64,000 nucleotides of DNA from Terriglobia bacterium. Its GTDB lineage: Bacteria; Acidobacteriota; Terriglobia; Terriglobales; Acidobacteriaceae. The translations under genes and the position numbers were made by a program. Below are positions 4,993 to 24,351 of the stretch, one piece after another; within the stretch, counting starts at the first letter, position 1, and every line of letters begins with the position of its first letter. The notes under the pieces were generated by a model, which searched no databases, was not told the origin of the DNA, and was given only the letters and a program-made list of their open reading frames with translations. Location: contig CAVTHC010000004.1 of assembly GCA_963734455.1 (NCBI GenBank), forward strand, positions 1,852 to 65,851, read 5' to 3'.

Positions 4993-5780
4993 GGCAAGAG
5001 CAACCCCTTGGCTTTGTCAATTTCCTCAAAGAGCCGACGCCGATAGCTCTGAGCGCGAATGACCAGTGAGGCTCTCTGCAACTCCGGGACTTTAAGCCGG
5101 CGTTCGACGATCTGGCCGAGTGTGACGCCGTGCTGTCGGGCGGGGTTTTCGAGTTCCGGCAGACGAAACTCCATCGTGAGGACAACTGGCTGGAAGACTG
5201 TGCGAAATTGCTTAGCTTGCTCGCTGTCCCGCCAGTAGGAGAAATCTGCTTGATGTGTCATGGCATTCTCAACCACGACGTAGTTCACTCTGTCTTGCAG
5301 ACGGGCAGCCCAGCTCAGAATGCTCTCCACGCTCGCCGGGTCGGGAGTGACAATGCCGATGGCCGTGAACGCCACACCGGTAGCTGCCACATCCTCAAAC
5401 ATGCTGTCGAACCACTCGTGGGTCACTTGACCGGAGCTAGCGCCCATGTCTGCGAGAATGATGGGAGCGCCGTCGGCTAGGTGGTCAACGAACGCGTCGA
5501 GGCCCGCAGAGGTGTGAATGTTCACCTTGGTCACCTTGCCATCGAAATAGTGCTTCAAACTTCCGCGCGATTTGTTCTCCGTGTCGAGGTCGAGAAGCGT
5601 GACCGGAATCTCATGACTCTCGAACCATTCGGCGAGAACGAGCATGAAGCTCGTTTTGCCGACTCCTCCTTTTCCTCCCATGGTGAGAATCACGCGCGTG
5701 GACGGGGCGGGGGACGGGACGACAGAAGGTGGATCGGAATTCTTCCGTTGGGCTGTTGCAGCAGTGTTGGAGTCGTACAT
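4989..5780 (-). CDS. ParA/MinD-like P-loop ATPase
   Basis: Deviant Walker A GGKGGVGKTS in a 263-aa ORF, in a mobile-element backbone context. Confidence 0.8.
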   Translation of the reverse strand: MYDSNTAATAQRKNSDPPSVVPSPAPSTRVILTMGGKGGVGKTSFMLVLAEWFESHEIPVTLLDLDTENKSRGSLKHYFDGKVTKVNIHTSAGLDAFVDHLADGAPIILADMGASSGQVTHEWFDSMFEDVAATGVAFTAIGIVTPDPASVESILSWAARLQDRVNYVVVENAMTHQADFSYWRDSEQAKQFRTVFQPVVLTMEFRLPELENPARQHGVTLGQIVERRLKVPELQRASLVIRAQSYRRRLFEEIDKAKGLLLP

Positions 5781-5786
5781 ATATGG

Positions 5787-6242
5787 CTACTCCTTCGTTC
5801 TCTGATTACGCTGAAGCCGCAACGGTTCGTCTGGGTTGTATTCAAACCAAAGTTTTTTCGCCCGCGTTTTCAGCGGTCGGTCTTTCAATTCCTTAATCGT
5901 CCTTGCAATGCCTTCCAGTGCCTTCTGAGGCCTTCCAGTGCTCTTGTCGTCCTCTGTGTCCTTGTAAGTACCTGTAAGTCCTTCCATGTTCTTCCTAGTC
6001 GCTGTTGTTCTCGAGGTCGAGAGCGACGGCTTCGCTTTTGACTTCGAACGTGCGAGCACAAAATCATTCACGGTGCTCACGCCCACCTTGAAGCCACAGG
6101 ATTTCTTGAGTACCTGCGCGATTTCACGATAGGTGCGGCCTCGTTTTCGCATCTCAGTAATTAACTCGCTGTACGGTTCCAAACGTGAGCGGGGTTCCTT
6201 GGTGGGCAGGCTGTTCAGTATGGCTTCAAATTTGGTGTCCAC
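5787..6242 (-). CDS. small DNA-binding (HTH) protein, function unknown
   Basis: N-terminal segment ELITEMRKRGRTYREIAQVLKKSCGFKVGVSTVNDFV looks like a resolvase/sigma-4-type HTH. Diverges from the relaxase gene across the candidate oriT. Confidence 0.5.
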   Translation of the reverse strand: MDTKFEAILNSLPTKEPRSRLEPYSELITEMRKRGRTYREIAQVLKKSCGFKVGVSTVNDFVLARSKSKAKPSLSTSRTTATRKNMEGLTGTYKDTEDDKSTGRPQKALEGIARTIKELKDRPLKTRAKKLWFEYNPDEPLRLQRNQRTKE

Positions 6243-6329
6243 GATTTCCTCCGAATGGGTGGTCTACAAGCTGGACTCGGGCGAAAGGTCGCTACTGATA
6301 CAGACGCCGAACGGAGGCCGAAGGGATGG

Positions 6330-6449
6330 CCGGACAAACACCGGATATGAACCGGATGTACACCGGACAAAGGCCGGTTGCACACCGGACACCTTACAGG
6401 TCGCGCACGTGGCACCGGACCTAACGCGAAGCGTTAGGGATGGTGTCTT
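6330..6449 (+). promoter_or_regulatory. candidate oriT / relaxosome assembly region
   Basis: CCGG(A/T) motifs start at 6330, 6341, 6352, 6363, 6374 and 6385 (exact 11-bp phasing), with another at 6415. Perfect 8-bp hairpin CCTAACGC-GAA-GCGTTAGG at 6420-6438. Followed by GGGATGGTGTCTT (6437-6449), 32 nt upstream of the relaxase start. Confidence 0.5.
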
Positions 6450-6480
6450 TCTGCAAGTGAGAAGTTAAAGGCTCCCGACC

Positions 6481-9351
6481 ATGCTTACCATTCGCGCCAT
6501 GTCCGACGGAACAGGCTACTCCGCACGCCATTTGGAGCATAGCGATTACTATGCCGAAGGCGAGCGCGTCACGGGCCAATGGCAGGGGCGAGGAGCGGAG
6601 TTGCTCGGACTGGCCGGGAAGGTTCAGTCGGAGCACTTTGAGGCACTGCGCCAGGGCCTCGATCCCCAAAGCGGCGAGTTCCTCCGGCAGCGCCACAGCG
6701 CCGACCGCACCGCCGCTGACGGCAGCACCCAAAGCCGAGGCCGAAACCTGTACGACTTCACGATGTCGGCTCCCAAGTCGGTTTCAATCATGGCCGAAGT
6801 GGGTGGGGATGCCAGACTGACGGAAGCGCATCGGAAGGCCGTTCAAGAAACGCTGAAGGAGTTGGAATGTCAAGCTGCAAGCCGGGTCCGAAGGCATGGG
6901 GCGAATGATAACCGCATCACGAGTAATCTTGTATTGGCCGTCTACCATCACGACACCAGCCGCGAACTTGACCCTCAGCTTCACACCCACGCGGTTGCCG
7001 CTAATCTGACCTATGACGGCGCTGAGGGCTGTTGGAAAGCTCTTCAAGCCTCTGGTATCTACGAGCAACGGGCTTACCTTACCGAGGTGTACCGGAACGC
7101 CTTGGCCCGCGAGGTGCGCTCTCTGGGTTACGGGATTGACGACCGGCGTAGCTCCAAAGGCAAGAACCTGGGCTTTGAGATCAAGGGTGTGTCGGATGAA
7201 TTGCTCGAAAAGTACAGCCAGCGCAGCGAGCAGCGCGACCAGGCGATTGCCGAGTTTGTCGAGAGTAAGGGTCGTCAGCCCAGCGACAACGAAATCGCCG
7301 TGCTGGTTCGTGAGTCGCGGGCCGATAAGCTGGTTGAGATTTCAACTGCAGAAGTGTATTCGCGCCAAGCCGCTCGCTTGACCCCAGAAGAGAGCCTAGC
7401 CCTTGAACGAATCCGCGGAACAGTCCTGGAGAGATCCCACACGGTGCGACCAGAACTGGCGAGCGCAGTTCCTTCGCTCGACTACGCCAAGCAGCACGTT
7501 TTTGAGCGTGTCTCCGTGGCGCTTGATCACGAACTGTTGACGGATGCACTTCGTCATGGCCGTGGCCGGATTGACTTGTCGGAACTGAAAGGAGAGTTTT
7601 CACTAGAGGAAAGCGCTGGCAAAATCCTGCGGGCTGGGAAGGAAGTCGCCACCCGCGAGAGTCTTGACCGTGAGCGGGACATGATCGAGCGGATCAATCG
7701 CGGGGTCGGTCAGTTTCAACGATTGGGCGGAGAGAATGAATTCGCTGCTTCCGAGTTCCTCCGTCCCGAGCAGAAAGAAGCAATCGAATTTGTTCTCAAT
7801 TCGCGTGACCTGGCGGTGAACATTCGCGGGGCGGCAGGCACCGGGAAAACCGTTACGCTGCAAGAGCTGCAGCGCGGCCTCGAAGAGAGTGGTCGCCGTG
7901 TGTTGGCGGTGGCTCCCACGATGAGCGCGGTTGAAGAACTGCAGAAAGTCGGCTTCGCGGATGCCATCACGGTGGAACGGCTGTTACAGGGCCAGAGTGC
8001 TCAAACAGACTTGTTCGGGAAAACGCTGATCGTGGATGAAGCAGGCATGGTTTCCGGTCGTCAAATGTCCGAGCTACTAAAGCTGGCCGACGAGCAATCA
8101 ACGCGAATCATCTTCAGTGGTGACACCAAGCAGATTCGAAGTGTCGAGGCCAGCGATGCTCTTCGGGTGCTGGAAAGAGAATCTCACTTAAAGAGTGTTT
8201 CGCTTAGCGAAGTGCGACGGCAGACCGCCCAAGGCTATCGCGACGCGATTCAGGAATTGCGCCGTGATCCTGAGCGCGGCTTCGAAAAGTTGGAACAAAT
8301 TGGTGCGGTGCGTGAGGTCCCCTGGTCCGACCGGGCACAGGCAGTTCAGCAAGCTTACTTAGAGAGTCAGGCGCAGGCCAATGCGAAGGGCCAACCACGC
8401 AGTGTGCTGGTTGTCGCCGCCACACACGAAGAGATTGGCCATATCACCGAAGCTATTCGCGCTGAGCGCACGCGCACGGGTGAACTGGGACAGAGTAGCC
8501 ACGAGCAGCACCACGTGCCACTGAACTGGACGAGTGCGGAGAAAAGTGACCTGCGGAACTATGCTGAAGGTCAGGTGCTGGAATTTCATCGGGCGGTCAA
8601 GGGCGTTGCTAGACATGAATCGCTGGAAGTCATCGGAGTGGAAAACGGCAAGGTCGTTGCCCGCAACGCGCGCGGCGAAGAGCACGAGTTCACAGCGAAG
8701 CAAGCGAAATGCTTTGAGGTCTATGAGCGCCGTGCCATTGAAATTGCTCCCAATGACAAGTTACTGCTGATGGCAAATCGGCGCGATCCTGATTTTCGCG
8801 CTACCAATGGCGAGCTGGTGACAGTTTCCCGAATTGACGAGCAGGGGCGCATTCATCTACAAGATAGCCGCACTCTACCGGAGAATTACAAGCAATTCAC
8901 ACACGGTTACGCTATCACCGCCCATCGTAGCCAGGGGAAGTCTGTGGATGCGGTTGTCATCTCCGCTGATGGGATGCGAAAGGAGTTGTTCTACGTAGCT
9001 GCGTCGCGGGGCCGGGAGAGCATCACGGTTGTGACCAGCGATAAAGACTTGCTGCGGGAGTCGGTAGCAAGCTCAGTCGCCCGGCAATCTGCTTCCGAAT
9101 TGTCGCGCAAAGCGCAAGGACCTTCAATGGAAAGGCTGAAACCGTCTTTACGCGAGCATGAACGCCGCGAACTGCCGGTTGCCCTTGAGCGGGGGTGCGA
9201 TAACGTACTCGAAGGAAAGGCGGAACTTAGAAAAGCTCCCACCCCCGAGACTGTGCAGACTATCGACCGGGAGAAACCCAGTTGCGAGCAGAAGCAGGAA
9301 CAATTCATAGACCCGGGACACTACTTCGGCATCAGCCGGTTAAGCCGGTAG
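6481..9351 (+). CDS. MOBF-family conjugative relaxase with C-terminal RecD/TraA-like helicase (TrwC/TraI type)
   Basis: 956-aa ORF. N-terminal relaxase motifs (YYAEG..., MSAPKSVS, histidine triad HHDTSRELDPQLHTHAV). Helicase Walker A GAAGTGKT and Walker B LIVDEAGMV. Confidence 0.9.
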   Translation: MLTIRAMSDGTGYSARHLEHSDYYAEGERVTGQWQGRGAELLGLAGKVQSEHFEALRQGLDPQSGEFLRQRHSADRTAADGSTQSRGRNLYDFTMSAPKSVSIMAEVGGDARLTEAHRKAVQETLKELECQAASRVRRHGANDNRITSNLVLAVYHHDTSRELDPQLHTHAVAANLTYDGAEGCWKALQASGIYEQRAYLTEVYRNALAREVRSLGYGIDDRRSSKGKNLGFEIKGVSDELLEKYSQRSEQRDQAIAEFVESKGRQPSDNEIAVLVRESRADKLVEISTAEVYSRQAARLTPEESLALERIRGTVLERSHTVRPELASAVPSLDYAKQHVFERVSVALDHELLTDALRHGRGRIDLSELKGEFSLEESAGKILRAGKEVATRESLDRERDMIERINRGVGQFQRLGGENEFAASEFLRPEQKEAIEFVLNSRDLAVNIRGAAGTGKTVTLQELQRGLEESGRRVLAVAPTMSAVEELQKVGFADAITVERLLQGQSAQTDLFGKTLIVDEAGMVSGRQMSELLKLADEQSTRIIFSGDTKQIRSVEASDALRVLERESHLKSVSLSEVRRQTAQGYRDAIQELRRDPERGFEKLEQIGAVREVPWSDRAQAVQQAYLESQAQANAKGQPRSVLVVAATHEEIGHITEAIRAERTRTGELGQSSHEQHHVPLNWTSAEKSDLRNYAEGQVLEFHRAVKGVARHESLEVIGVENGKVVARNARGEEHEFTAKQAKCFEVYERRAIEIAPNDKLLLMANRRDPDFRATNGELVTVSRIDEQGRIHLQDSRTLPENYKQFTHGYAITAHRSQGKSVDAVVISADGMRKELFYVAASRGRESITVVTSDKDLLRESVASSVARQSASELSRKAQGPSMERLKPSLREHERRELPVALERGCDNVLEGKAELRKAPTPETVQTIDREKPSCEQKQEQFIDPGHYFGISRLSR

Positions 9352-9951
9352 CTTGATCACGAAAGCGTAGCCGATATGCATACCTTGGCAATCGTCGCCA
9401 AACATTACAGTGGCGGGTCGCACAAGTGGCGGTAAACCGTTAGGGATCAGTACCACGACCCAGCCGAGCCGGGAAGGAGTTCCGCCCTGGGTCGCGTCGG
9501 TCGCATCGGGATCAGTGGCTCGACACTGTGTTCCTGCTGATGCACTGGCTCTTCCGTGGGTTCTGCTGTGGGTTCTGCTGTTCCAGTTCCACTCTAGGTA
9601 CTGGCGCACGGTTTGGTTTACCTGCGCCTCGTCCCGAGCAGGTGGGCCGTCATGGACAAGAGCGTCAAACTCGGTCGGAAAGCCGACTAGTAGAAAATGT
9701 CCAAGCTGTGATTCTCCTGTGAAATCAACGCGTCTGGCAATGCCCTCACAACTCTTATTCTGATTTCAGAACAAGCCAACTTTTCTAGATTTTTCCACAG
9801 CCTCTTCGATTAGATTGCTGCTTCTCTTTTTGCAACTTTGGTCTCTCGTGCGCGAGGAACAGCCCAGGCTCTACCCCGTGACGCTCGTAGAAGAACAGCA
9901 ATCCGTTTTGAACAGAGCCGGAAACATGCGCCAATAGCGTCAGGAGCGACA

Positions 9952-12900
9952 ATGAAAACCTCCGCTAGAATTTTCTTCCTCTTGCTAATCGTGTCATTCG
10001 TCACCAATGTTGCCCGCGCGGACTGCCCCCAGGGAGGGAATGCAACGTGCATAACGTCGTTCACGATTTCGCCGGCTGCAATTCCGGGCGACAACACGAC
10101 CACAGCTCTCGGCCAAGCCACGGCTCATATTGCTACCGGATACAATAGTTGGGAATTGGAGATAAGGCAATCGGGTAGTCTCGGCTGGGTTTGCCATCCG
10201 CCCGCAGTGCATCTTAGTCCGAACAGCGGCGGCGTGGGCTTTGCCGGGGGTTGTGCCGTCACAGGCGCGAGCGTGTCTTTTGAAATGTTTGGGCTGAACG
10301 GGGATTCGTCCCCCGTGCAGGTCGCCATAACAGGCGCAGCCGCTTACAACAACGATCCTGGAATAGACACGTCACTGACCCTGAACCCGAGACCCCCAGC
10401 TCTACCTCCCGACCAGGACCCTGACGGCCCGTGCCCCACATGCGGATATGGCGGCGCTCCTATTAACTTCGGTAATGGCGACACCTGGATCAGTCAACAG
10501 GACTACTCGATTCCGGGTCTTGGTGGCGGCCTGGTTCTCGGTCGGACCTGGAACAGCCTCTGGTCGTTAAGCCAGCCGCCCGAGGAATCCGGCATCTTTG
10601 GCGACAGTTGGCGCAGCAATTTTGAGGAACGCATACAGGTTTTGACGGGAGGAGTGGCCAAATATTGGAAGGGTAACGGAAGCAAGATTTTCTACGCATA
10701 CGACAGCGGCTCCGGCGGGTATGTCAGGACCGCACCAGCCGACGACCGTACAACACTGGATTACGACTCTATCACCATGCTCTGGACCGCTACGCAAAAG
10801 GACGGAGTCAGAAGAATCTTTAACAATGCGGGCTATCTAACCTCAATTGTGGACCGCAACGGCAACACCACCACCATCGTTGTGGACGCGGCGAACCAGA
10901 ACCGTATTTCCAGCGTCACCGATGCCGCTGGCCGTACCTTGACCTTCAATTATGCCAATGCCAATCCGCATCTTTGCACCAGCGTCTCGGATTCCGTTGG
11001 CACCGTCGCAACCTACAATTACGACTCCTCGGGCCGGTTGACCCAGGTCGTCTATCCCGACGGTTCGCAGTTCAATTTCAGCTATGACACGGGCAACCTG
11101 ATTCTGAGCGTGACCGATTCGCTGGGCCAGACCCTGGAAACGCACACTTACGACTCCCAGAATCGAGGGCTGAGTTCAGCGCAGGCCAGCGGAGTCAATC
11201 AGGTTTCACTCTATTATTCAAGTTCGACGGGCTCACCGGTGGTCATATACAACTCCCTAGGCCAAGCGTCCTGGGCCTACTTTTCTACGGTCGCACAGCG
11301 TCGATACCTGACTCAACCTCCCACGAATGTCGGTTGCGCCACTTGTGGATATGTACCGGGTTCTAGCTTCCTTCTCTCCGCTTCTGGCGACACGACGGCG
11401 TTCACTGATGGCAACAGCAACACCACCTACTACACGTATGACAGCCAGGGCAACGTCACCAGCAAGTCACTTCCTGACGCTTACCAGACGGGTGGCTACG
11501 ATATTTGGCAGTACACCTACAATGCTTTTAGCGAAGTTCTTTCGGTCACCGATCCGCTGAACCAGACCACCACCAATTCCTATGACAGCAACGGAAATCT
11601 GCTTTCCACTACTACGCCATCCCCCGATGGTTCAACCGCTGGCAGCGTCACGAGCTTCACCTACGACAGCCACGGCCAGCTCACGCGGATTACTGATCCG
11701 TTGTCAAACCAGACCAACATCGCCTACTACTCGACCGGTTTAATCCACACCATTACGGACACTCAGTCAGACGTGACCACCTATGCTTATGACGCTCGCG
11801 GCAACCGCACCAGCGTAACCGATGCCGCCAGTAATCAGACCCAGTTCCAGTACGACTCCATGAACCGGCTGACGAAGATCACCTACCCGGACAGCAGCAC
11901 GGTGCAGTTCGCCTATGACAACCGGGGGCGTCGCACGTCGGTCACCGACCAGAACAGCAAGGTCACGCAGTACGCCTACGACGACGCCAACCGCCTGACC
12001 TCGGTCACTGACGCGGCCAGCCATCAGACGCAGTACACGTATGACACGGAAAACAACCTGACCGACATCTACGATGCCGCCAGCAACCACACCCATTTCG
12101 ACTACATCATTGGCCGCCAACTGCAAAAAATCACGTTCCCCTCGGGTTTGTACGAGCAGTATTCTTTGGATAACGCCGACAACCTGGTCTACAAGTGGGA
12201 CCGAAAGAACCAGCAGCTCGCTTTGTCTCGCGATGCCCAGAACCGGGTCATTCGCCGCATCGATTCCGGCAACACGGTCTACTACACCTATGACGCCGCT
12301 GGCCGCATGACTCAGGCGCAGGATAACACCGGCACCTACGGTTTCACCTACGACAACATGGGCCGGTTGACCGAGACCACCACGAACTATACATTCCTGA
12401 CCGCGCGCGGATTCAACGTCCAATACGCCTACGATGCTGCGTCAAACCGGGTGACCTTGACCGATCCCGAGAGCGGCACCACGCACTACACCTATGACAC
12501 GCTTAACCGGCTGACGGGTCTAAACGACTTCCAGTCGCACAATTTCACATTCGGCTACGACGCCCTCAGCCGCCGTTCCCAGCTCACCCGGCCCAACGGC
12601 ATCAACACCAATTATTCCTACGACAACGTTTCTCACCTGCTTTCGGTGCTGCATCAACTCGGCAGCACCACAGTGGACGGGGCCAGCTATGTCTACGATT
12701 CAGCGGGCAACCGCACGGCCAAGACCGACCAGGCCAGTAGTGTTACGTCGAATTACGGCTACGACGCGATTTATCAGCTGACGGGGGTGTCCCAAGGGTC
12801 TACGTCTACGGAGAGCTACACCTACGACACGGTGGGTAATAGGCTGTCGTCTTTAGGCGTGTCACCGTACAGCTACAACTCGTCGAACGAGCTGACCTCG

Positions 12901-13911
12901 ACTCCGAGTACGACCTACACCTACGACAATAACGGGAGCACAGTGACGAAGGTCGACTCCACCGGCACGACCACATACACATGGGACTACGTGAACCAGT
13001 TGAGCAGTGTCGCGCTGCCGGGCTCGGGCGGGACGGTTAGCTTCAAGTACGACCCCTTCGGGCGGCGGATTTACAAATCTTCATCAAGCAGCACTTCGGT
13101 GTTCGCCTACGACGGCGATGACCTCATCGAAGAGACAAATTCAGCCGGAGCGGTCGTTGCTCGTTATTCTCTGACGGGAAATATCGATGAGCCTCTGGCG
13201 ATGCTGCGGAGCGGCGGGACAAGCTACTATGAGCAGGATGATCTTGGCTCTGTCACTTCACTCACCAATGGTAGCGGGTCACTAGGGCAAACATACACAT
13301 TCGATTCATTCGGAAACCAAACTGCGTCCGCTGGTTCTCTTACAAATCCAATCCGCTTCGCGGGCCGCGAGTTCGATGCTGAATCGAGCCTCTATTATAT
13401 GCGCGCCAGGTATTTCGATCCCGTCGCCGGGAGGTTCATCAGCGAAGACCCGAACGGTAACGGGACTCTGTACGATGATATGAATCTCTACGTCTACACC
13501 GAAAACAATCCCACTAATTGGACTGATCCTTTGGGGTTGTACACCTTGAAAAAGGGCGGAAAACATCCGCCTCTTCCGCCTTCTCCAGTAATCGATGCCC
13601 TTCTCAAGTGCATCGAAGCCAAGACGGGGCTTCAGCTTACGGTGACGTCAACGTCCGAGGATATTCCGCAGCATGCGCCTGGAACTCCACACAGAAGGGG
13701 CGTCGCTGTTGACCTTAAATACGATTCGGGAAATGCCGACAAAATCCTGTGTGCGGCTTCGGGTTGTGGCGCTGGCTTTGGGCTGGACGAGGGAAAGCAT
13801 CCGTCGGCACAGTCCACGGGCAATCACATTCATCTTCAAATCCCGCCCGGCAAGAATGGCGGGCGCGGCGACCTTCCGAAGAAACCGTGCAGTGATAGCG
13901 GGTGCAAATGA
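9952..13911 (+). CDS. RHS/YD-repeat polymorphic toxin with Sec-type signal peptide and LAS/M15-like metallopeptidase C-terminal domain
   Basis: ATG at 9952 preceded by AGGAG. Signal MKTSARIFFLLLIVSFVTNVARA. Dozens of YD repeats (xYxYDxxGNR/L). Core-end motif NPTNWTDPLGL. The 123-aa tip (13540-13908) carries PHRRGVAVD (HxxGxAxD) and HIH (HxH). Confidence 0.9.
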   Translation: MKTSARIFFLLLIVSFVTNVARADCPQGGNATCITSFTISPAAIPGDNTTTALGQATAHIATGYNSWELEIRQSGSLGWVCHPPAVHLSPNSGGVGFAGGCAVTGASVSFEMFGLNGDSSPVQVAITGAAAYNNDPGIDTSLTLNPRPPALPPDQDPDGPCPTCGYGGAPINFGNGDTWISQQDYSIPGLGGGLVLGRTWNSLWSLSQPPEESGIFGDSWRSNFEERIQVLTGGVAKYWKGNGSKIFYAYDSGSGGYVRTAPADDRTTLDYDSITMLWTATQKDGVRRIFNNAGYLTSIVDRNGNTTTIVVDAANQNRISSVTDAAGRTLTFNYANANPHLCTSVSDSVGTVATYNYDSSGRLTQVVYPDGSQFNFSYDTGNLILSVTDSLGQTLETHTYDSQNRGLSSAQASGVNQVSLYYSSSTGSPVVIYNSLGQASWAYFSTVAQRRYLTQPPTNVGCATCGYVPGSSFLLSASGDTTAFTDGNSNTTYYTYDSQGNVTSKSLPDAYQTGGYDIWQYTYNAFSEVLSVTDPLNQTTTNSYDSNGNLLSTTTPSPDGSTAGSVTSFTYDSHGQLTRITDPLSNQTNIAYYSTGLIHTITDTQSDVTTYAYDARGNRTSVTDAASNQTQFQYDSMNRLTKITYPDSSTVQFAYDNRGRRTSVTDQNSKVTQYAYDDANRLTSVTDAASHQTQYTYDTENNLTDIYDAASNHTHFDYIIGRQLQKITFPSGLYEQYSLDNADNLVYKWDRKNQQLALSRDAQNRVIRRIDSGNTVYYTYDAAGRMTQAQDNTGTYGFTYDNMGRLTETTTNYTFLTARGFNVQYAYDAASNRVTLTDPESGTTHYTYDTLNRLTGLNDFQSHNFTFGYDALSRRSQLTRPNGINTNYSYDNVSHLLSVLHQLGSTTVDGASYVYDSAGNRTAKTDQASSVTSNYGYDAIYQLTGVSQGSTSTESYTYDTVGNRLSSLGVSPYSYNSSNELTSTPSTTYTYDNNGSTVTKVDSTGTTTYTWDYVNQLSSVALPGSGGTVSFKYDPFGRRIYKSSSSSTSVFAYDGDDLIEETNSAGAVVARYSLTGNIDEPLAMLRSGGTSYYEQDDLGSVTSLTNGSGSLGQTYTFDSFGNQTASAGSLTNPIRFAGREFDAESSLYYMRARYFDPVAGRFISEDPNGNGTLYDDMNLYVYTENNPTNWTDPLGLYTLKKGGKHPPLPPSPVIDALLKCIEAKTGLQLTVTSTSEDIPQHAPGTPHRRGVAVDLKYDSGNADKILCAASGCGAGFGLDEGKHPSAQSTGNHIHLQIPPGKNGGRGDLPKKPCSDSGCK
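11891..13061 (+). repeat. 1171-bp direct repeat, copy 1 (inside the full-length rhs)
   Basis: Sense and antisense ORF translations are identical to those of 14689-15859. Boundaries were determined by reading both copies. Confidence 0.9.
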
Positions 13912-14531
13912 TCGCATTCGGGCAAATTCGCATCTATGCGTCGCGGATCGCTTTATCGTTGATGTTCTTGCTTACGGCGACTCCGACCTTCGCCCAGCAG
14001 GGATCATCTCCGCCAGCGCCTGCTAAACCCAGTGAAGAGTCTGCGCTCTGCAAGCGGGGATCTCTACCTCCGGACGTAGAGAGTCGCCTCAAAACAGAGT
14101 TCGGCTCTTGGAAGATTCAGGAACCCGCAGACCTCAGCCCGCATGCCCACGAAAGATGGGAATCTGAGAAGCCACGGGCGTGCCCGGGTATCGCTGTGGG
14201 GCAATTCGAGATCGCCAAGATGCTCTCCTATGCTGTTCTACTGGTCCCCCAAAGTCACACAGTCGCAGGCTACAAATTCCTCGTCTTCAGTCCTAAAGCC
14301 GGGCAGCCGTCCTACGAGATGAGGGTTGCTGATTCGGGTGATAGTGGAGCCGCTAACTTTTTCATCCACACGACACCGATCAGCAAGTTCTTCGATGAGC
14401 CATCCAGGAAGAAATTTCAAGCCCACACCGTGGACGGCATCTTACTCGTAGACTCAGCCGAAAATGAATATGGGGTAGAGGTGTACTTTTGGTCCAGCGG
14501 CCACTATCGGCACGAGCCGATAGACTACTAG
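13908..14531 (+). CDS. candidate cognate immunity protein, secreted/periplasmic
   Basis: ATG overlaps the rhs stop (ATGA at 13908-13911). Signal peptide SLMFLLTATPTFAQQ. I recognise no family. The position immediately 3' of the toxin tip is the classic immunity position. Confidence 0.6.
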   Translation: MIAFGQIRIYASRIALSLMFLLTATPTFAQQGSSPPAPAKPSEESALCKRGSLPPDVESRLKTEFGSWKIQEPADLSPHAHERWESEKPRACPGIAVGQFEIAKMLSYAVLLVPQSHTVAGYKFLVFSPKAGQPSYEMRVADSGDSGAANFFIHTTPISKFFDEPSRKKFQAHTVDGILLVDSAENEYGVEVYFWSSGHYRHEPIDY

Positions 14532-14688
14532 CTTGGCCTGACTCCCCCCTTTAGCTGTCTCTGAGGTCCTGCCAGGGCAGGGTTAACGTGCAGCGCCGGG
14601 GAGCGCCGGTGCCCAGGCCCCCAAGTGATCGGACCGCCGCTAATCTATGCCCAGCTACTTGCGGTTGCGAATCGCGATGACGAGGGCA

Positions 14689-15859
14689 ACAGCAGCACGG
14701 TGCAGTTCGCCTATGACAACCGGGGGCGTCGCACGTCGGTCACCGACCAGAACAGCAAGGTCACGCAGTACGCCTACGACGACGCCAACCGCCTGACCTC
14801 GGTCACTGACGCGGCCAGCCATCAGACGCAGTACACGTATGACACGGAAAACAACCTGACCGACATCTACGATGCCGCCAGCAACCACACCCATTTCGAC
14901 TACATCATTGGCCGCCAACTGCAAAAAATCACGTTCCCCTCGGGTTTGTACGAGCAGTATTCTTTGGATAACGCCGACAACCTGGTCTACAAGTGGGACC
15001 GAAAGAACCAGCAGCTCGCTTTGTCTCGCGATGCCCAGAACCGGGTCATTCGCCGCATCGATTCCGGCAACACGGTCTACTACACCTATGACGCCGCTGG
15101 CCGCATGACTCAGGCGCAGGATAACACCGGCACCTACGGTTTCACCTACGACAACATGGGCCGGTTGACCGAGACCACCACGAACTATACATTCCTGACC
15201 GCGCGCGGATTCAACGTCCAATACGCCTACGATGCTGCGTCAAACCGGGTGACCTTGACCGATCCCGAGAGCGGCACCACGCACTACACCTATGACACGC
15301 TTAACCGGCTGACGGGTCTAAACGACTTCCAGTCGCACAATTTCACATTCGGCTACGACGCCCTCAGCCGCCGTTCCCAGCTCACCCGGCCCAACGGCAT
15401 CAACACCAATTATTCCTACGACAACGTTTCTCACCTGCTTTCGGTGCTGCATCAACTCGGCAGCACCACAGTGGACGGGGCCAGCTATGTCTACGATTCA
15501 GCGGGCAACCGCACGGCCAAGACCGACCAGGCCAGTAGTGTTACGTCGAATTACGGCTACGACGCGATTTATCAGCTGACGGGGGTGTCCCAAGGGTCTA
15601 CGTCTACGGAGAGCTACACCTACGACACGGTGGGTAATAGGCTGTCGTCTTTAGGCGTGTCACCGTACAGCTACAACTCGTCGAACGAGCTGACCTCGAC
15701 TCCGAGTACGACCTACACCTACGACAATAACGGGAGCACAGTGACGAAGGTCGACTCCACCGGCACGACCACATACACATGGGACTACGTGAACCAGTTG
15801 AGCAGTGTCGCGCTGCCGGGCTCGGGCGGGACGGTTAGCTTCAAGTACGACCCCTTCGG
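14689..15859 (+). repeat. 1171-bp direct repeat, copy 2 (5' part of the orphan rhs cassette)
   Basis: Offset of 2798 nt from copy 1. Homology starts at ACAGCAGCACGG and ends at CCCCTTCGG. Confidence 0.9.
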
Positions 15860-16685
15860 CAGGAGGATTCAGAAGAGTGGGCCGAGCGGGACCGTGAACT
15901 ACCTCTATGATGGCCCCAACCCTCTGGAAGAGGTCGATCAGAACGGAAATGTTCTGGCCAGGTACACGCAAAGTGGTCTGATTGACGAGCCGCTGTCCGA
16001 ACTCCGTGCGAGCACGACCAGCTATTACGAGCAAGACGGAATCGATGCGGTTACTTCATTGAGCAATTCAGCGGGGGCACTGGCCAACACGTACAGCTAC
16101 GATTGTTTCGGCAAGCTGACCGCCTCCACCGGAACGATAACCAATCCATTCCAATACACCAGTCGGGAGTTCGATCTCGAAACCGGATTGTTGAACTACA
16201 GGGCGCGCTATTACGACCCGACCATCGGCAGGTTCGTCAGTGAAGACCCGATCGGATTCCATGCCGGAGTGAATTTCTACGACTACGTGCTGAACAGGCC
16301 TACTGTGTTTCTCGATCCAACTGGACTCGCGGGAGGACCCTATGGCACGTACGAGAAGACACGGTCATGGGGCAGCAAAATCAAATGCGCCATATACCTG
16401 GTCTACTGCACAAGAAACCTGCAGCAGACGCGTGACAGCCTTGACAACATGACCGACCAAGCAGTGACGAATACATCCGACGCGACGAGCAACCAGGGAA
16501 GCTACAGCAACCAAAGGCTGCAATGCGGCCTCTCACAAGATCCTAACTGTCAAAAGGCGCTGGAAAACTGCGTGAAGCTTGGGCTTACGAATCCTTTTCC
16601 TCCTCCGTCTTGGATGAAAGACTTGATCAATTATTTTTCGCAACCCAGTTCAACGCAACCGACTCCCCCGCCAACTCAACCGTGA
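14689..16685 (+). CDS. orphan (displaced) RHS C-terminal cassette lacking the N-terminal two thirds and signal peptide; alternative toxin tip
   Basis: RHS homology begins abruptly at 14689 with no RBS or signal sequence. It has its own divergent core end (...FLDPTGL) and a 118-aa Cys-rich tip (16329-16682) unrelated to the first tip. Confidence 0.8.
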
Positions 16686-16696
16686 GAGGAGGTCTT

Positions 16697-17200
16697 ATGC
16701 GCACTCTCTTGGCTATTGTTCTCGGCGTGGCTTTGAGCCTGATTCTACTGCTGGGTGAAAGCTTCTTCGTCATGAACTTCACGAAGGGCGGACAGGTGAC
16801 GCGGGATGCACTTTTCATCAAGAACGCGACGGACGCCGCACTCGCCCAGAAGTATGGTGGCGATCCGTTCGAACTGATACGGTCCACGCAACGGACCCAG
16901 AAATTCGTGCTGGAACCGATGATGGCCATCGCTGTCGGTCTTCTCGTGGGCTTCGTGGACAGGACTCGACCAAAGTTCTCAGCAGGCGTCGCTCTCATCC
17001 CGTGGATCATCGTCAACCTTGCCGGGTTGCACTGGCGGCAAGCCTGCGAGGCGTGTCTCGGAGGTGATCTGGCGCTTAACGCTGCTTACCCCGGAATCGG
17101 GATACTAGCAGCGCACTATTGCGGAAAGCTGGTGCATCGCCGGGGTGGAACTGCTCTGGTACAGCGGTCCGTAAAGCCCGAAGGTGTTAGACCAAGATGA
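16697..17200 (+). CDS. candidate immunity protein for the orphan tip; about 4-TM membrane protein
   Basis: ATG at 16697 preceded by GAGGAGG directly after the rhs stop. Hydrophobic segments LLAIVLGVALSLILLLG, MMAIAVGLLVGFV, VALIPWIIVNLAGL, YPGIGILAAHY. Confidence 0.55.
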   Translation: MRTLLAIVLGVALSLILLLGESFFVMNFTKGGQVTRDALFIKNATDAALAQKYGGDPFELIRSTQRTQKFVLEPMMAIAVGLLVGFVDRTRPKFSAGVALIPWIIVNLAGLHWRQACEACLGGDLALNAAYPGIGILAAHYCGKLVHRRGGTALVQRSVKPEGVRPR

Positions 17201-17771
17201 CTATGCAGGTGATGCCGCGATGAGGGGTAATTGGGATTGGGAGATCATCCCCGAAGGCACCGTCGAATGGATCGGTTTCTCTATTGCGCTGTTGGTTGTT
17301 CTGGTAGCCGCCTGGTGGATATCCCGATGAACTGATCCTTTTTAGCCCCTCGATCCGCTGCCCGCGGTCCGGTGCTGTGGGGTTCTGCCCGCAGGAAGTG
17401 AGCGGCTGGTAAAGTCAAAGCCCGGCCATTGCTGCGCATGGGGTTTACCAAGAGAAGTTTCTGGAGCTTCTTCCGGGTCATGGGCCGCAGCGAAGCCAGG
17501 TACCCGGCAAGCTCGTAGGGGTGAAACCTCCCACACGGCGGCCTGAAATCCTGGCAGCTCGGCGGCAAACTCGGGATGCTGCTCGGCGACCTCAGCGAAG
17601 GTCAGCAGCTTCTCTCTCACCAGATAGTCCAGGGCATTCTTCAGGCCGAAGCGCCGCCGGATGGTGCGGGTGGCTTGGCACTGCTTTCTCCAAATCTTGT
17701 GGCCGTGCATGAGGGAAACTATAGCGCCGTCGTGCGTCGTTCGCCAAGCTGGGCCAACAACAACTCGGAGC

Positions 17772-17870
17772 AAGACACCATCCCTTGCGCCTGCGGCGCA
17801 ATGAAAAGCGCACTGCCGGAAAGCACCCGGCGTCCGGTGAGCATCCGGGCTTTGTCCGGTGTCTGTCCGG
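17772..17870 (-). promoter_or_regulatory. degenerate second copy of the oriT-like module (minus orientation)
   Basis: The reverse complement contains a 34-mer with 30/34 identity to 6360-6393 (17829-17862). TCCGG motifs are phased at 11 bp (17833/17844/17855/17866). It has the hairpin TTGCGCC-TGC-GGCGCAA (17785-17801) and the identical 13-mer GGGATGGTGTCTT (reverse complement of 17772-17784). Confidence 0.5.
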
Positions 17871-17989
17871 CGTGGCGCCCGATCTCAGTTCGAGGGTTTG
17901 AGCGGCTCCCCGATTCCTGACACACACTGAGGGTTAGTTTCCGGAAATCTCCAGTTTTGTTTGTGACAGAAAATGGGAGCGGTTCAGCC

Positions 17990-18319
17990 CAGCTCATGCG
18001 TCATGTAATGCTGAGTCAGTTCCGCAAACGTCACGCGGCCCCGGAATTCTGATTTGTTGATTTGAGTTTGCAGATGTTACCTTTCTACTTCGGCCGACGC
18101 GGCAGACTCGGTAGGGAAATCGCTCACAAGGGCAACTACCACCTTGTGCTCGACTCGCCGTGAGTCTAGAGGCCGGGTTACGAAATAGCGCAACACCCAG
18201 GTTTGTCCATTCTTGCGGGATTCCACCCGCAACCTTCCACGTTGAAACCGCGCCATCTTAAATCGTCTCCTGTCTTGGCGCGGGAGACTGCCGTGACTGC
18301 GCGCGGACGGCATCCGCAA
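17990..18319 (-). pseudogene. remnant of a second tyrosine integrase (N-terminal part only, in-frame stop)
   Basis: MARFQRGRLRVESRKNGQTWVLRYF...DFPTESAASAEVER-stop-HLQTQINKSEFRGRVTFAELTQHYMTHELG parallels the N-terminus of the intact integrase (…VWNYLFCENG…DFPTKTAAWQAAE…). A TAA interrupts the frame at 18077-18079, and integrase-like sequence ends at about 17990. Confidence 0.65.
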
Positions 18320-18450
18320 CCTCTGAAAGGCGAAACCGCCACCCGCCCCTTACCTTGCCCCAGGGGATAAGCAGGAATCACGCCTTGGCGTGCCAATTCC
18401 AGCACGCGGCTCGTGACGGCAATGATCTGGTTCCACAAGTCCAGCGCCTA
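18320..18450 (-). pseudogene. remnant of an excisionase-like HTH gene (frameshifted)
   Basis: ...RVLELARQGVIPAYPLGQGKG in one frame continues as GGWRFRLSEVADAV in another. The same LxxARQGxxxAY...WRF signature occurs in the 3612-3983 product. Confidence 0.4.
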
Positions 18451-18523
18451 TTCGCTTGGGCAGGTGGGAAAGTACCCGATGAACGCAGAGAACGTCCTCA
18501 GGCGATTCGCGCAAAATCATCGG

Positions 18524-18901
18524 TCAAGGGCAGGTGAGTTGTGCTGTACCTTTAATGGTTGATCCTTGTTGCCCGTCCAAGGGCTGGACCGTCACGCTTC
18601 CCGTAATCGTCGCTGTGCCCACCGCCGAGGCGACACATTGCGCCAAACCGCTGTTGTCGATTGTCGCAATCGTCACATCAGAAACTGCCCAGGCGGCTGT
18701 CATAGGAGTCTCAGTGAGCGGTGGCTTGTTGAAGTTCCCAGTAGCCGTAAATTGTACCTGACCGCTTGTTGTGCTTTGCGCATCGGCCATAGCAGGACTC
18801 ACGGTGATCGACTGCAACTGACGCGGGGTGCTGCCGCCACACGCTAAAGTTACCGAGGTCAAGTAGAGAGCCACCACAAACAGAAGGCCGGACCTAGTCA
18901 T
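18524..18901 (-). CDS. small lipoprotein with bacterial Ig-like (Big_2-type) domain
   Basis: Signal plus lipobox-like LTSVTLAC. The body (ITVSP...VQFTATG...WAVSD..IATIDNSGL...GTATITG) matches the Big_2 pattern. Confidence 0.7.
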   Translation of the reverse strand: MTRSGLLFVVALYLTSVTLACGGSTPRQLQSITVSPAMADAQSTTSGQVQFTATGNFNKPPLTETPMTAAWAVSDVTIATIDNSGLAQCVASAVGTATITGSVTVQPLDGQQGSTIKGTAQLTCP

Positions 18902-18916
18902 AAAGCAAAATCTCCT

Positions 18917-20488
18917 TTAGGGTGTCAACTTGAACGAAGTCAGTAGACTATGCCACCCAGTGTTACTCGTCGTCGGATAGTATTCGTTCGTGTACACGAA
19001 CGTAAGGTCATCGACAGGATCGATAGACATGCTGGTATAGTCTCCCCACCGCGAAAATCCAGTTTGAGCACCAGTGCCTGGGTGAACGTTGGTCTCTGCC
19101 CTCATTGTACCAAGAGCATCGCCGGGAGCGCGGCCAGTAATACGGATTCCGGGAAATATGCTGCCGCTGGAGACGCTGTAGCCCAATGCAATCTTTCCGT
19201 TCTTATCCATTCCGATGCTGCCCATCCACCGCCAATTCAAATCCGGCGAGAAGGTGCCTTGCTGGTACAGGGTTTGCGTACCACCAGGGTTGCGAATCTC
19301 GTACCATCGAACGCCTGCCACCCCCCCTGGTGGCGCTGCGACGGTCTGGCAGACCACCCAAGCCTCGTGGTCGCCAAAGTTGCGGTAAGCTAGTCGGTGC
19401 ATTAAACGACCACCCAATGTATCAAGTGTTTGACTAGTTCCTTCTTGCGGAACACAAGTGCCACACGGTGGATTGTATGTAATGGTCAATGGGTTCCCGG
19501 CAGTAAGCGTCGAGTTGGCGGGATTCGCAAAATCCACGTGAAACTTCTGGATATTGATAAAGGGCCCACCGTGGAGGGTGGAGCGTATATCCATAAAGAA
19601 ATTAGCGCGGCCTGACGGTGGCAGAGTCGATCCGTCAAGATCTGAAGGTAGATAACTAAAATCTGGAGCTACATTTTGCTGGAAACAGATTTGGGCCGCT
19701 GAACTGCCAACAAGCATCGCACTGCGGTTGTAAGCACATACCCACGCTCCGACGAACGTGGTTCCGTTTTGGTACATATTGTAAGAGGCATAATAACCGT
19801 CCGGCCAGACACCAAATTTCGGATAGTCAGGCAAGTTATTAAACGAAAAAGCATATCGGTTATAGGAGCCGGTAGCATCCGAAGTAGTGGAAACTGCCAT
19901 GCAGATCGTCCCCGAGGCGAATGAATTGCTGGATGCGATTAGACCGACAAACCAGCGGCCAGCCTGCTTGTCGTATAGGACGACGGGATCAGAAAAGCTG
20001 GGTCCTAATTGGCATACTCCTCCGAATGGAGGGTTGGCGGCCCAGATACTGCTGAGCTGGTTCGGACCAAGTAGCGATGTACCCGCCTTGTTAAATACCT
20101 GATACGAGACATTAACGGTTTCAACGATCTGCGTTGCGCCTACTGACGCGTTTGGATCAGGCGGTATGAATCCAGTAGCCGAAATGCCGTCAAAACTAAA
20201 GAGTCCGCTCGTGCCCACGAGTGGACTACCTATTGCAGATGTCTGCACCTGAGGCTGCGGCCCAACATTCACGACTGGAAAAGTCGGCCCGGGTCTCAAC
20301 GGTATAACCTGCAATCCAACAGACGGTGGGGCAATCTGAGGTGCGTCTCTCAGGGGAATGGAGGTATCGTGGTAGTCCTGATAGACCACGTCCGGTTGCA
20401 CGTCCTGCGCAATTGTCGGTTCTACCCAAAGGAAAGATAGAGCAACTCCCAGGAGAAGTAAGCTAGAAGGTCCTCGCAGGTCTTTCAT
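18917..20488 (-). CDS. secreted hypothetical protein (523 aa)
   Basis: Signal peptide LLLLGVALSFLWVEPTIAQ. Long uninterrupted ORF in comparatively AT-rich DNA. I can name no catalytic motif with confidence. Confidence 0.7.
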   Translation of the reverse strand: MKDLRGPSSLLLLGVALSFLWVEPTIAQDVQPDVVYQDYHDTSIPLRDAPQIAPPSVGLQVIPLRPGPTFPVVNVGPQPQVQTSAIGSPLVGTSGLFSFDGISATGFIPPDPNASVGATQIVETVNVSYQVFNKAGTSLLGPNQLSSIWAANPPFGGVCQLGPSFSDPVVLYDKQAGRWFVGLIASSNSFASGTICMAVSTTSDATGSYNRYAFSFNNLPDYPKFGVWPDGYYASYNMYQNGTTFVGAWVCAYNRSAMLVGSSAAQICFQQNVAPDFSYLPSDLDGSTLPPSGRANFFMDIRSTLHGGPFINIQKFHVDFANPANSTLTAGNPLTITYNPPCGTCVPQEGTSQTLDTLGGRLMHRLAYRNFGDHEAWVVCQTVAAPPGGVAGVRWYEIRNPGGTQTLYQQGTFSPDLNWRWMGSIGMDKNGKIALGYSVSSGSIFPGIRITGRAPGDALGTMRAETNVHPGTGAQTGFSRWGDYTSMSIDPVDDLTFVYTNEYYPTTSNTGWHSLLTSFKLTP

Positions 20489-20874
20489 CAGATTGTTCCT
20501 TTCTGGGTAGGTCCGTAGGATCGTCGATCATTCAATTGAGCAACGAAGACACCAGATATTGTGCGACAATAAGACTATCCAGGCCAACAAAGATTTTGAC
20601 GGTCGCTTTCCCGACGCTGATGGTCGGCCACTCAGAATGCGGTGGCGCATCTATTGCTTGTTCTCTTGCAGCTTACCTTGGCCATGAACGCCCTGCACAA
20701 TCCCTAAAGCGTTTTGTTCCGAATTCCGACCACCCAACCGTAAGCTGTTGAAGAAGCGTCGTGTCATTCGCAGGTGTTCTGTGCGGACGCTCGCATACTT
20801 ACCGGATTTCCGGGAAAAGGCAGCAATTTGGACAGCCCTAGCGGTCTGGTTCGGCGCTGCCTCAGGTATCCTGA

Positions 20875-21155
20875 GTGCTCCGCAGAATCTTGGCCGAGTG
20901 GCAACCTGCACCCGCTGCAAGGGCCCTGGCTGCGAAGCGCACGCAGCGCGTTGATACGCGGCCCGTCCTTGACGCCGCTCGGGCACGGAATGGGGCAGGC
21001 GTGTTCCGACGATCCCGATTCGGACTCCTGGGACGGACAGAACGTTTTCGATGTATTCACTAAGGCCCAGGGTACTGCGCTCGATTTTCACCTTCGCGTG
21101 CGCGGCCTACAATCTGGTGCGCATGAAAAATCTGGCGACAATTCCAGCGATATAA
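20875..21155 (+). pseudogene. C-terminal remnant of a DDE transposase (IS4/IS5-like), frame-disrupted
   Basis: Frame ending at TAA 21153-21155 reads RPRVLRSIFTFACAAYNLVRMKNLATIPAI, a typical IS4/IS5-type C-terminal AYNL-x-R tail. Upstream pieces (…RFGLLGRTERF…) lie in another frame. No intact ORF. Confidence 0.45.
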
Positions 21156-21810
21156 GTCGGGGCCGAAGTGTGTTTCGCGGAGCATCGAGTTCTAAAGGGA
21201 CAGTCGGCAAGCTGCGACTGTTTTGGTGATTGAACTGGCCCTATCTCAGCCCATGGTTCCAGCCCAGGATTACTGCGCCTCGCACGTATTTGCAGGTACT
21301 TGGCAGTCTCCCGCAAACCTGTAAGTAGTTGTGGGTTGTGGTTGAACTAGGTCTGAAAAGGCTGGCGTCCGCGGTTCAACTCCGTCCTGGCGGTTTCACT
21401 TTGATGAGCGGAAGAGCGGGCGGTTAAGAGCAAACCCGAAAAGAGGCGTGGGATTCGAAGAGGCGCAGGAAGTTTTTTCGTACCCATACTACCTTGACAG
21501 CGCGCGGATTGTCTCGAACAGTACCGGGCGATCGGCTGGGTTTAGGAGCAGTTGTACACCGTCATTTTTGAAGTGCTAGTGGACGAAGAAGGAGAGTACT
21601 ACCACCTCGTCACTCTCTGGAAGGCCACCAAGTAGGAGCAGCAACTCTATGGAGAACACTCGTAAACGCCGGAAACCAGTGTCGGCAGAGGCCATTGCCT
21701 CGGTGAACACCCAAAAGCGGCCATACAAGATCACCTGAAAAGCGGCCATACTTTCAGAAGAAACGTCCAGGACATTGACAGCAGCGGGAGGGTAAGTAGC
21801 CTCTCGCAAC

Positions 21811-24284: not shown

Positions 24285-24351
24285 GTGGCAGGATAGAACA
24301 AACTTAGTCTTGGACTCTTCGAAAGTATGGCCGGTTTTGAACTGATCATGT

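Follow-up and report, generated by a model that had tools for sequence, protein, structure and literature searches.

What does an RHS protein do when its variable C-terminal end carries the metal-ligand pattern of a cell-wall peptidase? The question is raised by an rhs locus of a soil Terriglobia bacterium (Acidobacteriota), which lies in a stretch of 64,000 nucleotides (contig CAVTHC010000004.1 of assembly GCA_963734455.1, positions 1,852 to 65,851) that we call the window. An earlier note, made by reading the letters of this stretch, had proposed that the rhs gene ends in a toxin tip resembling the LAS/M15 zinc peptidases and that the next gene encodes an exported immunity protein. From the evidence presented here we consider it likely that the locus encodes an RHS polymorphic toxin whose payload is a LAS-fold, zinc-dependent peptidoglycan peptidase, together with a Sec-exported periplasmic immunity protein. 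The features on which this answer depends are the following.

9952..13911, plus strand: main rhs gene, 1319 amino acids plus stop (Pfam, NCBIfam, phmmer against PDB sequences)
13303..13539, plus strand: end of the RHS-associated core, ...YMRARYFDPVAGRFISEDP...NNPTNWTDPLGL (TIGR03696 Rhs_assc_core, E 2e-23, and reading of the motif)
13540..13908, plus strand: toxin tip, 123 amino acids, predicted minimal LAS (Hedgehog/DD-peptidase, M15A-like) zinc peptidase domain
13908..14531, plus strand: cognate immunity candidate, 207 amino acids (sequence, homologues, synteny, co-variation, AlphaFold2 model)

The rhs gene starts at ATG 9952, with AGGAG upstream at 9942-9946, and its product begins with MKTSARIFFLLLIVSFVTNVARA followed by DCPQ, which has the n-h-c layout of a Sec-type signal peptide (residues 1-23, nucleotides 9952-10020). 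After the signal come DUF6531, the RHS/YD repeats and the RHS-associated core. Pfam detects DUF6531 and 15 RHS repeats (RHS_repeat, E 3e-75), and NCBIfam detects the YD repeats (TIGR01643) and, near the end, the core (TIGR03696). Among PDB sequences the protein matches by phmmer the solved Rhs cages 8h8a, 7q97, Tse15, Tse5 and Tre23. The cage matches that reach the C-terminal end finish at residues 1195-1197, except for the teneurin-like 9pt5, which extends to 1202, and this limit coincides with the junction between ...NPTNWTDPLGL and the following Y. Because homology to solved cages ends at this junction, the last 123 residues form a separate module, which by its place in the sequence occupies the toxin position of RHS proteins and is directly followed by the stop codon (13909-13911). 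By analogy with solved Rhs/TcC proteins, the core end would be an autoproteolytic boundary that frees the tip within the cage. The three elements of an RHS polymorphic toxin, namely repeats, a core ending in PxxxxDPxGL and a variable tip, are all found here. The core-end motif with a 123-residue tip behind it and the Sec signal of the RHS protein had both been read in the earlier note, and the translation of the open reading frame (ORF) and the Sec-like character of its N-terminus agree with that reading.

Within the tip, PHRRGVAVD (H-x6-D) places H51 at codon 13690-13692 and D58 at 13711-13713, and HIHLQ, 45 residues past H51, places H96 at 13825-13827 and H98 at 13831-13833; both motifs, and the distance between them, are as the earlier note had given them. 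H51, D58 and H98 are predicted, from sequence and model, to be the zinc ligands, while E84 (13789-13791), H96 and H45 are candidate catalytic residues. To follow these positions through the family, conservation was counted in 131 representative tips, each taken from a separate 50%-identity cluster. H51 is retained in 131/131, D58 and H98 in 130/131 each, E84 in 129/131, H96 in 123/131 and H45 in 112/131; the cysteines of the conserved pair C24/C76 are each present in 129/131. When 52 diverse tips are aligned with MAFFT, no column is invariant except H51, D58 and H98. We also evaluated how often such a motif would arise from composition: when the tip was shuffled 300,000 times with its composition preserved, 0.4% of the shuffles contained HxxGxAxD, and 0.02% contained HxxGxAxD with an HxH at least 20 residues behind it. 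The HxxGxAxD...HxH motif is therefore more than chance, conservation in the family being the stronger argument. The family also has conserved motifs of its own, TSTSE, CGAGFGLDE and GDLP, besides the Cys pair.

The tail of the tip after the HxH strand (about 13840-13908, residues 101-123) reads PPGxxGGxGDLP and then has two Cys. Among relatives, GDLP is kept in about two thirds and the Cys pair in about one third; the tail is a low-confidence part of the model, and nothing in M15A or Hedgehog corresponds to it. Minus-strand ORFs that overlap 13540-14531 (89, 72 and 62 amino acids) were considered as alternative genes and found no support, the plus-strand frames being the ones conserved across loci.

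The family of the tip was then sought by profile comparison. A single tip finds no match among PDB sequences by phmmer. With a 23-sequence profile, 22 of the 23 weak matches are Hedgehog N-domains (HhN; E about 0.1), and with a 52-sequence profile (A5) HhN becomes the sole family reached (22 matches, E 4e-4 to 5e-3). The profile alignment puts H45, H51 and D58 of the tip on H135, H141 and D148 of Sonic hedgehog (Shh, mouse numbering), and hhalign of the tip family against the Shh N-domain (ShhN; E 9e-5 and 2.6e-3) puts HIH (H96, H98) on Shh H181-I-H183. Since the PDB holds few M15A structures, the place of HhN as the closest family is partly a sampling effect. Among curated models, Peptidase_M15_3 is touched by 3/23 and 1/52 relatives (E 4e-4 to 0.013) and HH_signal and M15_4 by one relative each, all below threshold.

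Structure prediction leads to the same superfamily. The AlphaFold2 model of the tip, built with the family alignment as input, has a predicted local distance difference test score (pLDDT) of 90.1 and a predicted template modelling score (pTM) of 0.84, and its elements run helix-strand-strand-helix-strand-strand. Compared with the PDB by Foldseek, the model has LAS proteins at all of ranks 1-44, with a probability of up to 0.99; they include HhN, the Streptomyces albus zinc DD-peptidase 1lbu, MepA, VldE, ChiX (5opz) and the RB49 L-alanoyl-D-glutamate peptidase (endolysin). Compared with predicted phage and viral proteins, it has nine matches at E<=1e-3, with probability 1.00 and a template modelling (TM) score of up to 0.62. 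The informatively named phage matches are M15/M15A peptidases and MepK ('murein endopeptidase K'), with E 5.8e-5 to 9e-4, and the remaining named viral matches are one glycoside hydrolase and one LT_GEWL-domain protein. Identity to ShhN in the structural alignments is 16-20%, and the profile and hhalign alignments span the zinc-site half only. From sequence and model together we take the tip to be a minimal LAS domain whose zinc site is intact: the triad H-x(6)-D...H with its HxH strand is present, and the predicted structure can be superposed on LAS structures. The tip remains below the curated Pfam and NCBIfam thresholds for M15 and HH_signal, so that its LAS character rests on fold and active site, and it lies outside every existing curated Pfam M15 family. 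The LAS/M15 ligand arrangement of the earlier note, for which an HMM (hidden Markov model) or structure comparison had been suggested, is thus upheld by the predicted fold, the Foldseek matches, the profiles and the alignment of the ligands, but not by the Pfam M15 thresholds.

How widespread is this tip? An initial search returned 24 metagenomic relatives with 50-80% identity, many of them labelled 'RHS repeat-associated protein'. An exhaustive profile search over 1.84 billion cluster representatives found 303 proteins at E<=1e-3, of which 184 reach E<=1e-10, and the domain is carried by about 300 clusters at 50% identity. It nearly always sits at the extreme C-terminus, no more than about 13 residues following it in some 135 of 148 representatives, and RHS repeats were found in all nine carrier proteins scanned (362-1747 amino acids, several being fragments). 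A further database search with a broad tip profile, aimed at other scaffolds or at names given by the sources, returned only 'RHS repeat-associated protein' or 'hypothetical'. The genomes with the tip are mostly Acidobacteriota (Ca. Acidoferrum, Acidobacteriaceae, Terriglobia), and the other hosts are the cultured Rhizobacter sp. OV335 and some metagenome-assembled genomes (MAGs) of Gammaproteobacteria. Orphan cassettes made of tip and partner also occur, for example at loci L002, L007 and L017.

Some relatives differ in arrangement. On contig CAVYFO010000035.1 of an Acidobacteriota MAG, two tip/immunity cassettes (L008 and L009) lie about 7 kb apart, each with a tip 85% identical to that of the window, and cassettes of the family can therefore accumulate in arrays. 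Many relatives (P0180, P0190, P0192, P0207, P0216 and others) have a Pro/Gln/Ser-rich linker of 30-60 amino acids before the peptidase head, often with DPDGH or DPTGM as RHS end motif; the window protein has no linker. Because so many relatives carry this linker between motif and head, a regular-expression count of RHS end motifs upstream of the tips came out too low and was not used as a statistic.

The gene behind the tip has the features expected of an immunity gene. Its ATG at 13908 overlaps the stop codon of rhs (ATGA), an arrangement that we read as translational coupling of the two genes. The product begins with MIAFGQIRIYASRIALSLMFLLTATPTFA followed by QQGSS, a typical Sec signal (residues 1-29, nucleotides 13908-13994), and the mature protein is mostly beta-strand with N-terminal helices and has C48 and C92 invariant. 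It has more than 253 homologues, none named and none with a Pfam domain, and Pfam and NCBIfam scans of the partner itself gave no match. The AlphaFold2 model of the mature protein has a pLDDT of about 90, and its comparison with the PDB by Foldseek gave no match (best E 0.12, TM <0.3); PARP WGR and DDB1 propeller fragments, which come up in this heterogeneous list, were rejected as its fold.

To evaluate whether tip and partner belong together, we collected 28 loci encoding a tip relative, from metagenomes and species-representative genomes, and searched them with HMMs of the tip and the partner. In 24 of the 28, the tip is followed immediately 3', in the same orientation, by a partner homologue. 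Of the four loci that deviate, three are copies of a single locus with a very remote homologue, a downstream ORF of 170 amino acids (L004) that aligns over the W..P....P.IA.G.F core. Across 22 distinct loci, identities of tips and of partners are correlated (Spearman 0.70, over 231 non-independent pairs), and the partner diverges faster: between L013 and the window pair the tips are 78% identical and the partners 45%. This co-variation, with faster divergence of the partner, is indicative of the usual toxin/immunity pattern. A hydrophobic, signal-like N-terminus is found in 100 of 120 members of the partner family, and most of the other 20 look like truncated or mis-started gene calls. The RHS scheme includes a cognate downstream gene that varies with the tip, and such a gene is found here; protection itself is predicted. 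Synteny, co-variation and localisation thus suggest that the 207-residue partner would inhibit the tip. For this gene, the ATGA overlap, the clear Sec signal and the role of immunity candidate proposed in the earlier note all find computational support in these data.

Where would the two proteins act? Because the RHS protein and its partner both bear Sec signals, and because near-invariant Cys pairs are present in the tip (C24/C76) and in the partner (C48/C92), an extracytoplasmic, oxidising site of action is suggested. The window also encodes TonB and a TonB-dependent receptor, from which the host is taken to be a diderm.

Concerning delivery, no PAAR, VgrG, Hcp or other type VI secretion system (T6SS) domain was found in the RHS protein or in 37 other ORFs of the window, in a scan of all large ORFs and ten further sequences (eight small ORFs, the tip of an orphan rhs fragment described below and the N-terminal region of the RHS protein). 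The flanks of the proteobacterial loci L016 and L017 showed no T6SS gene either, but these flanks are short (4 kb) and the rhs N-terminus of L017 is cut off. Sec-like N-termini are found in six RHS proteins that carry the tip and are full-length or nearly so, and the three of them that were scanned by Pfam contain no PAAR domain. A PAAR or VgrG domain, or a linked vgrG, hcp or chaperone gene, by which T6SS-delivered Rhs effectors are recognised, is therefore absent within these 64 kb. The statement of the earlier note that no VgrG, PAAR or Hcp gene is nearby holds for every ORF scanned in the window. Its proposal that delivery may not depend on a T6SS gains from the missing T6SS genes, the Sec-like carriers and the lack of PAAR, but it can be evaluated only in part from 64 kb. 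Sec-dependent RHS toxins are a class recognised through comparative genomics (Zhang et al. 2012, PMC3482391).

Downstream of the pair there is a second rhs module, and the whole locus lies on a genomic island. The corresponding features are these.

14625..16685, plus strand: orphan rhs C-terminal fragment whose tip, behind ...FLDPTGL, is Cys-rich and differs from that of the main gene (RHS repeats, translation)
16697..17200, plus strand: hydrophobic ORF that looks as if it has several transmembrane segments, after the orphan tip (translation; no Pfam match)
2441..25449, no strand: genomic island of about 23.0 kb carrying the whole RHS locus (direct repeats and tRNA; Pfam for the cargo)
2509-3615, minus strand: tyrosine integrase, island cargo, adjoining tRNA-Asn
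4989-5780, minus strand: ParA-like, island cargo
6481-9351, plus strand: TrwC relaxase, island cargo
21811-24284: IS21 istA/istB, island cargo, downstream of the RHS locus

A segment of 1171 bp in the orphan fragment, 14689-15859, is a 100% identical direct copy of 11891-13061 in the main rhs gene; beyond it identity falls to 52-66% and then to background at the tips. An orphan C-terminal/immunity module sharing core sequence with the main gene, as is known from RHS systems, is therefore present. A perfect repeat followed by loss of identity is, as read from the sequence, the footprint of a very recent C-terminal displacement, and it looks as if the LAS tip with its immunity gene is the most recent arrival and the previous tip has moved to the orphan position. 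The orphan tip (16299-16685) is about 120 amino acids long, Cys-rich with a Pro-rich tail, unrelated to the LAS tip and without a match in Pfam. By its position, 16697-17200 is likely the immunity gene of the orphan module, and the two may form a second, membrane-related toxin/immunity pair.

An exact 25-nt direct repeat (2441-2465 = 25425-25449) marks both ends of the island; 23 of its 25 nucleotides are the 3' end of tRNA-Asn(GTT) at 2389-2463. No genes of a type IV secretion system (T4SS) were seen among the island genes, and because a relaxase and the other cargo are present but no T4SS was seen, the island is probably an integrative mobilizable element. A role for the tip as a conjugation-associated wall hydrolase of the island was considered and rejected, since the domain is the payload of an RHS protein and is paired with an immunity partner, and since no T4SS was seen. 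The istA product has rve and Mu-transposase C domains, and istB is found with E 2.5e-62. Two ORFs of 523 amino acids have no Pfam match: one lies inside the island (18917-20488, minus strand) and the other (827-2398, plus strand) overlaps an opposite-strand prolyl oligopeptidase gene and is probably spurious. A promoter and terminator scan of 9300-17400 gave counts no different from shuffles, and an Rfam scan of 1-26000 found tRNA only.

From these elements the following course of events can be proposed. The 1319-residue precursor would be exported by Sec, as its signal peptide suggests, and the RHS cage would form, cut itself after DPLGL and enclose the 123-residue tip, as in solved Rhs/TcC proteins. 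The tip would then arrive in the periplasm of a competitor, no T6SS gene being nearby. There H51, D58 and H98 would hold a zinc ion, E84 with H96 and H45 would activate a water molecule, and a peptide bond of murein stem peptides or cross-links would be cut, weakening the sacculus. Murein is the presumed substrate because M15A, MepK, MepA, ChiX and the phage enzymes act on it. M15A-type enzymes include DD-carboxypeptidases and LD- and DD-endopeptidases, while ChiX and T5-type enzymes cut L-Ala-D-Glu. The 207-residue partner, exported to the periplasm of the producer, would bind and block the peptidase and so protect from leakage of the producer's own cages and from attack by kin, as synteny, co-variation and the signal peptide suggest. 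The tip/immunity cassette would have been swapped in recently by recombination, the former tip passing to the orphan position, and the locus would travel on the tRNA-Asn island.

Several points weigh against this proposal. Enzyme activity, zinc binding, toxicity and protection are predictions from sequence and model, and the zinc-site geometry of H51, D58 and H98 is putative. Pfam and NCBIfam scans of the window tip gave no M15, LAS or Hedgehog model at threshold, and the Foldseek matches in the PDB have weak E-values (0.016-0.3) and TM scores of only 0.42-0.52, in part because the tip is a stripped-down core. The pairs behind the co-variation of tip and partner partly reflect shared ancestry. 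The RHS tips characterised so far have, for the most part, a cytoplasmic or membrane site of action; an enzyme of 13 kDa that needs disulfide folding after release from a cage would be unusual, and a Sec-exported RHS protein would need some route across two outer membranes. A rival reading keeps the toxin and immunity functions but assigns delivery to a T6SS, or to some other dedicated apparatus, whose genes lie elsewhere in the genome; the N-terminal hydrophobic stretch would then not be a cleaved Sec signal. The majority of Gram-negative Rhs toxins studied so far are cargo of a T6SS, all of the closest solved cages are T6SS Rhs proteins, only 64 kb of the genome are visible, and Acidobacteria are listed among the T6SS-bearing lineages (PMC3482391). 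However, neither the RHS protein nor the three full-length carriers scanned by Pfam have a PAAR, VgrG-binding or prePAAR region, six carriers begin with classic n-h-c signal sequences, and T6SS genes are missing from the window and from the flanks of the two proteobacterial loci; with Sec-dependent RHS toxins being a recognised class (PMC3482391), we consider delivery by such an apparatus improbable.

The nature of the target can also be questioned. With E84, H96 and H45 conserved alongside the zinc triad, which argues for catalysis, and with murein as the substrate of all bacterial and phage enzymes that came up as fold matches, it is unlikely that the same fold and metal site serve another purpose, be it cleavage of a periplasmic or outer-membrane protein or lipoprotein (the Lpp-murein link, a division protein) or binding only. 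Such a purpose would nevertheless fit the Hedgehog N-domains, which are the closest solved sequence relatives and have a disputed peptidase role and matrix binding (PMC6027127, PMC8052667), as well as the lack in the tip of the extra substrate-binding elements of larger M15 enzymes and its conserved C-terminal GDLP/Cys tail, which those enzymes do not have. Alternatively, instead of being an antibacterial toxin, the tip might act on the producer itself, as a murein peptidase by which the wall is opened for release of the bulky RHS protein, with the partner as a regulator. The model for this is ChiX (5opz), which is among the fold matches and belongs to the holin/endopeptidase ('type 10') pathway by which Serratia secretes chitinases and Tc toxins; release of RHS-containing Tc toxins by a type 10 secretion system has been reported (bioRxiv 10.1101/2023.02.22.529496). 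Yet the domain lies after the RHS autoproteolysis motif, where payloads of polymorphic toxins sit, it occurs with its partner in promoterless-looking orphan cassettes, and the partner diverges faster than the enzyme, for which reasons we regard self-release as very improbable; the neighbouring orphan module, moreover, has an unrelated tip, which like the other three features is typical of the exchange of toxin/immunity pairs, and no holin was found nearby. The reading that we prefer thus remains a murein peptidase carried as RHS payload and countered by a periplasmic immunity protein.

How does this pair compare with known systems? M15A and Peptidase_M15_3-type murein peptidases (phage M15A lysins, MepK, 1lbu) are the best structural matches and share with the tip the LAS fold, the H-x6-D...H zinc triad with HxH strand and extracytoplasmic action. 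However, identity to the tip is only 14-29%, the tip comprises no more than a minimal core (about 100 amino acids), and the M15A-type enzymes lack its motifs and Cys pair; they are housekeeping or lysis enzymes, whereas the tip would be the cleaved payload of an RHS cage with a dedicated inhibitor. HhN is about 19% identical to the tip, which lacks the Ca2+-binding residues and the N-terminal half of HhN. The bacterial Hedgehog-like proteins (bacHh, Roelink 2018, PMC6027127) are >50% identical to ShhN over about 145 amino acids, Ca2+-coordinating residues included, and the tip falls short of this degree of similarity. The link to Hedgehog, judged by sequence, is therefore real at the level of the superfamily and distant, and because bacHh is far closer to Hedgehog than the tip is, a direct origin of the Hedgehog ligand in this toxin has a low probability.

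The T6SS peptidoglycan effectors (Tse1/Tae-Tsi, WHIX, Tpe14) follow the same logic, with a murein hydrolase that is brought into the periplasm of a rival and an adjacent immunity gene bearing a signal peptide. WHIX effectors have M15-like and MepA-like N-terminal domains (PMC12135965), and Tpe14 of A. baumannii has an M15_3 domain (PMC6833914). These effectors ride on VgrG, Hcp or PAAR, whereas the tip rides on an RHS protein with a Sec signal and no T6SS gene in view, and the tip and partner families are unrelated in sequence to the described T6SS peptidoglycan effector/immunity families. With the Sec-dependent RHS/YD toxins (the 'T2SS/Sec' class, in which T2SS is the type II secretion system, PMC3482391; WapA of Bacillus and Streptococcus) the locus shares the signal peptide, the repeats and the core-end motif. 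It also resembles them in its orphan modules and in having an immunity gene downstream of a variable toxin at the C-terminus. The WapA-type toxins characterised so far are nucleases of the cytoplasm of monoderms, whereas the system of the window belongs to a diderm and its payload is predicted to act in the periplasm.

In the catalogue of polymorphic toxins of Zhang et al. (2012, PMC3482391) no LAS/M15 peptidase tip is listed. A VanY-like toxin domain was described in a polymorphic toxin system with Cystatin-like domains (Burroughs and Aravind 2025, PMC12419801). Both this head and our tip are interchangeable LAS-superfamily toxin heads with a linked immunity protein, but by its description the VanY-like system has another scaffold and another LAS subfamily (VanY/M15B as against M15A/Hedgehog-like). 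Our literature search found no RHS toxin with a LAS-type tip. Because no precedent for the tip was found and the family is unnamed in the sources, the pair appears, on sequence grounds, to be a new pair of toxin and immunity families inside the established RHS scheme, with an unusual payload predicted to act in the periplasm, and not a new kind of system. The logic of a murein hydrolase with periplasmic immunity is familiar, and it is the compartment and the export route that are unusual for an RHS toxin.

More tentatively, the locus could represent a T6SS-independent RHS weapon of diderm soil bacteria, in which a Sec-exported cage carries a disulfide-stabilised, Hedgehog-like murein peptidase across the competitor's outer membrane only, with a periplasmic immunity protein whose fold has no match among solved structures. 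Delivery would then be a simpler case for a Sec-dependent RHS protein, because the target is periplasmic and only the outer membrane has to be crossed. A cell-wall-targeting class would join the RHS repertoire, and two missing families would be added for annotation pipelines, since toxin and immunity family alike escape the models of Pfam and NCBIfam. The cultured carrier Rhizobacter sp. OV335, which has a homologous cassette, makes the system tractable, and the locus is an example of toxin cassettes riding a mobilizable tRNA island. The tip domain is among the smallest LAS peptidases, and through its Hedgehog relatives it is of interest for the evolution of Hedgehog and its disputed enzymology. 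Polymorphic toxin systems have already been proposed as the source of the Hint domain of Hedgehog and of SuFu. If this more tentative reading is true, such systems would be a large reservoir of HhN-like peptidase heads, and a toxin origin of the Hedgehog ligand domain would become testable.

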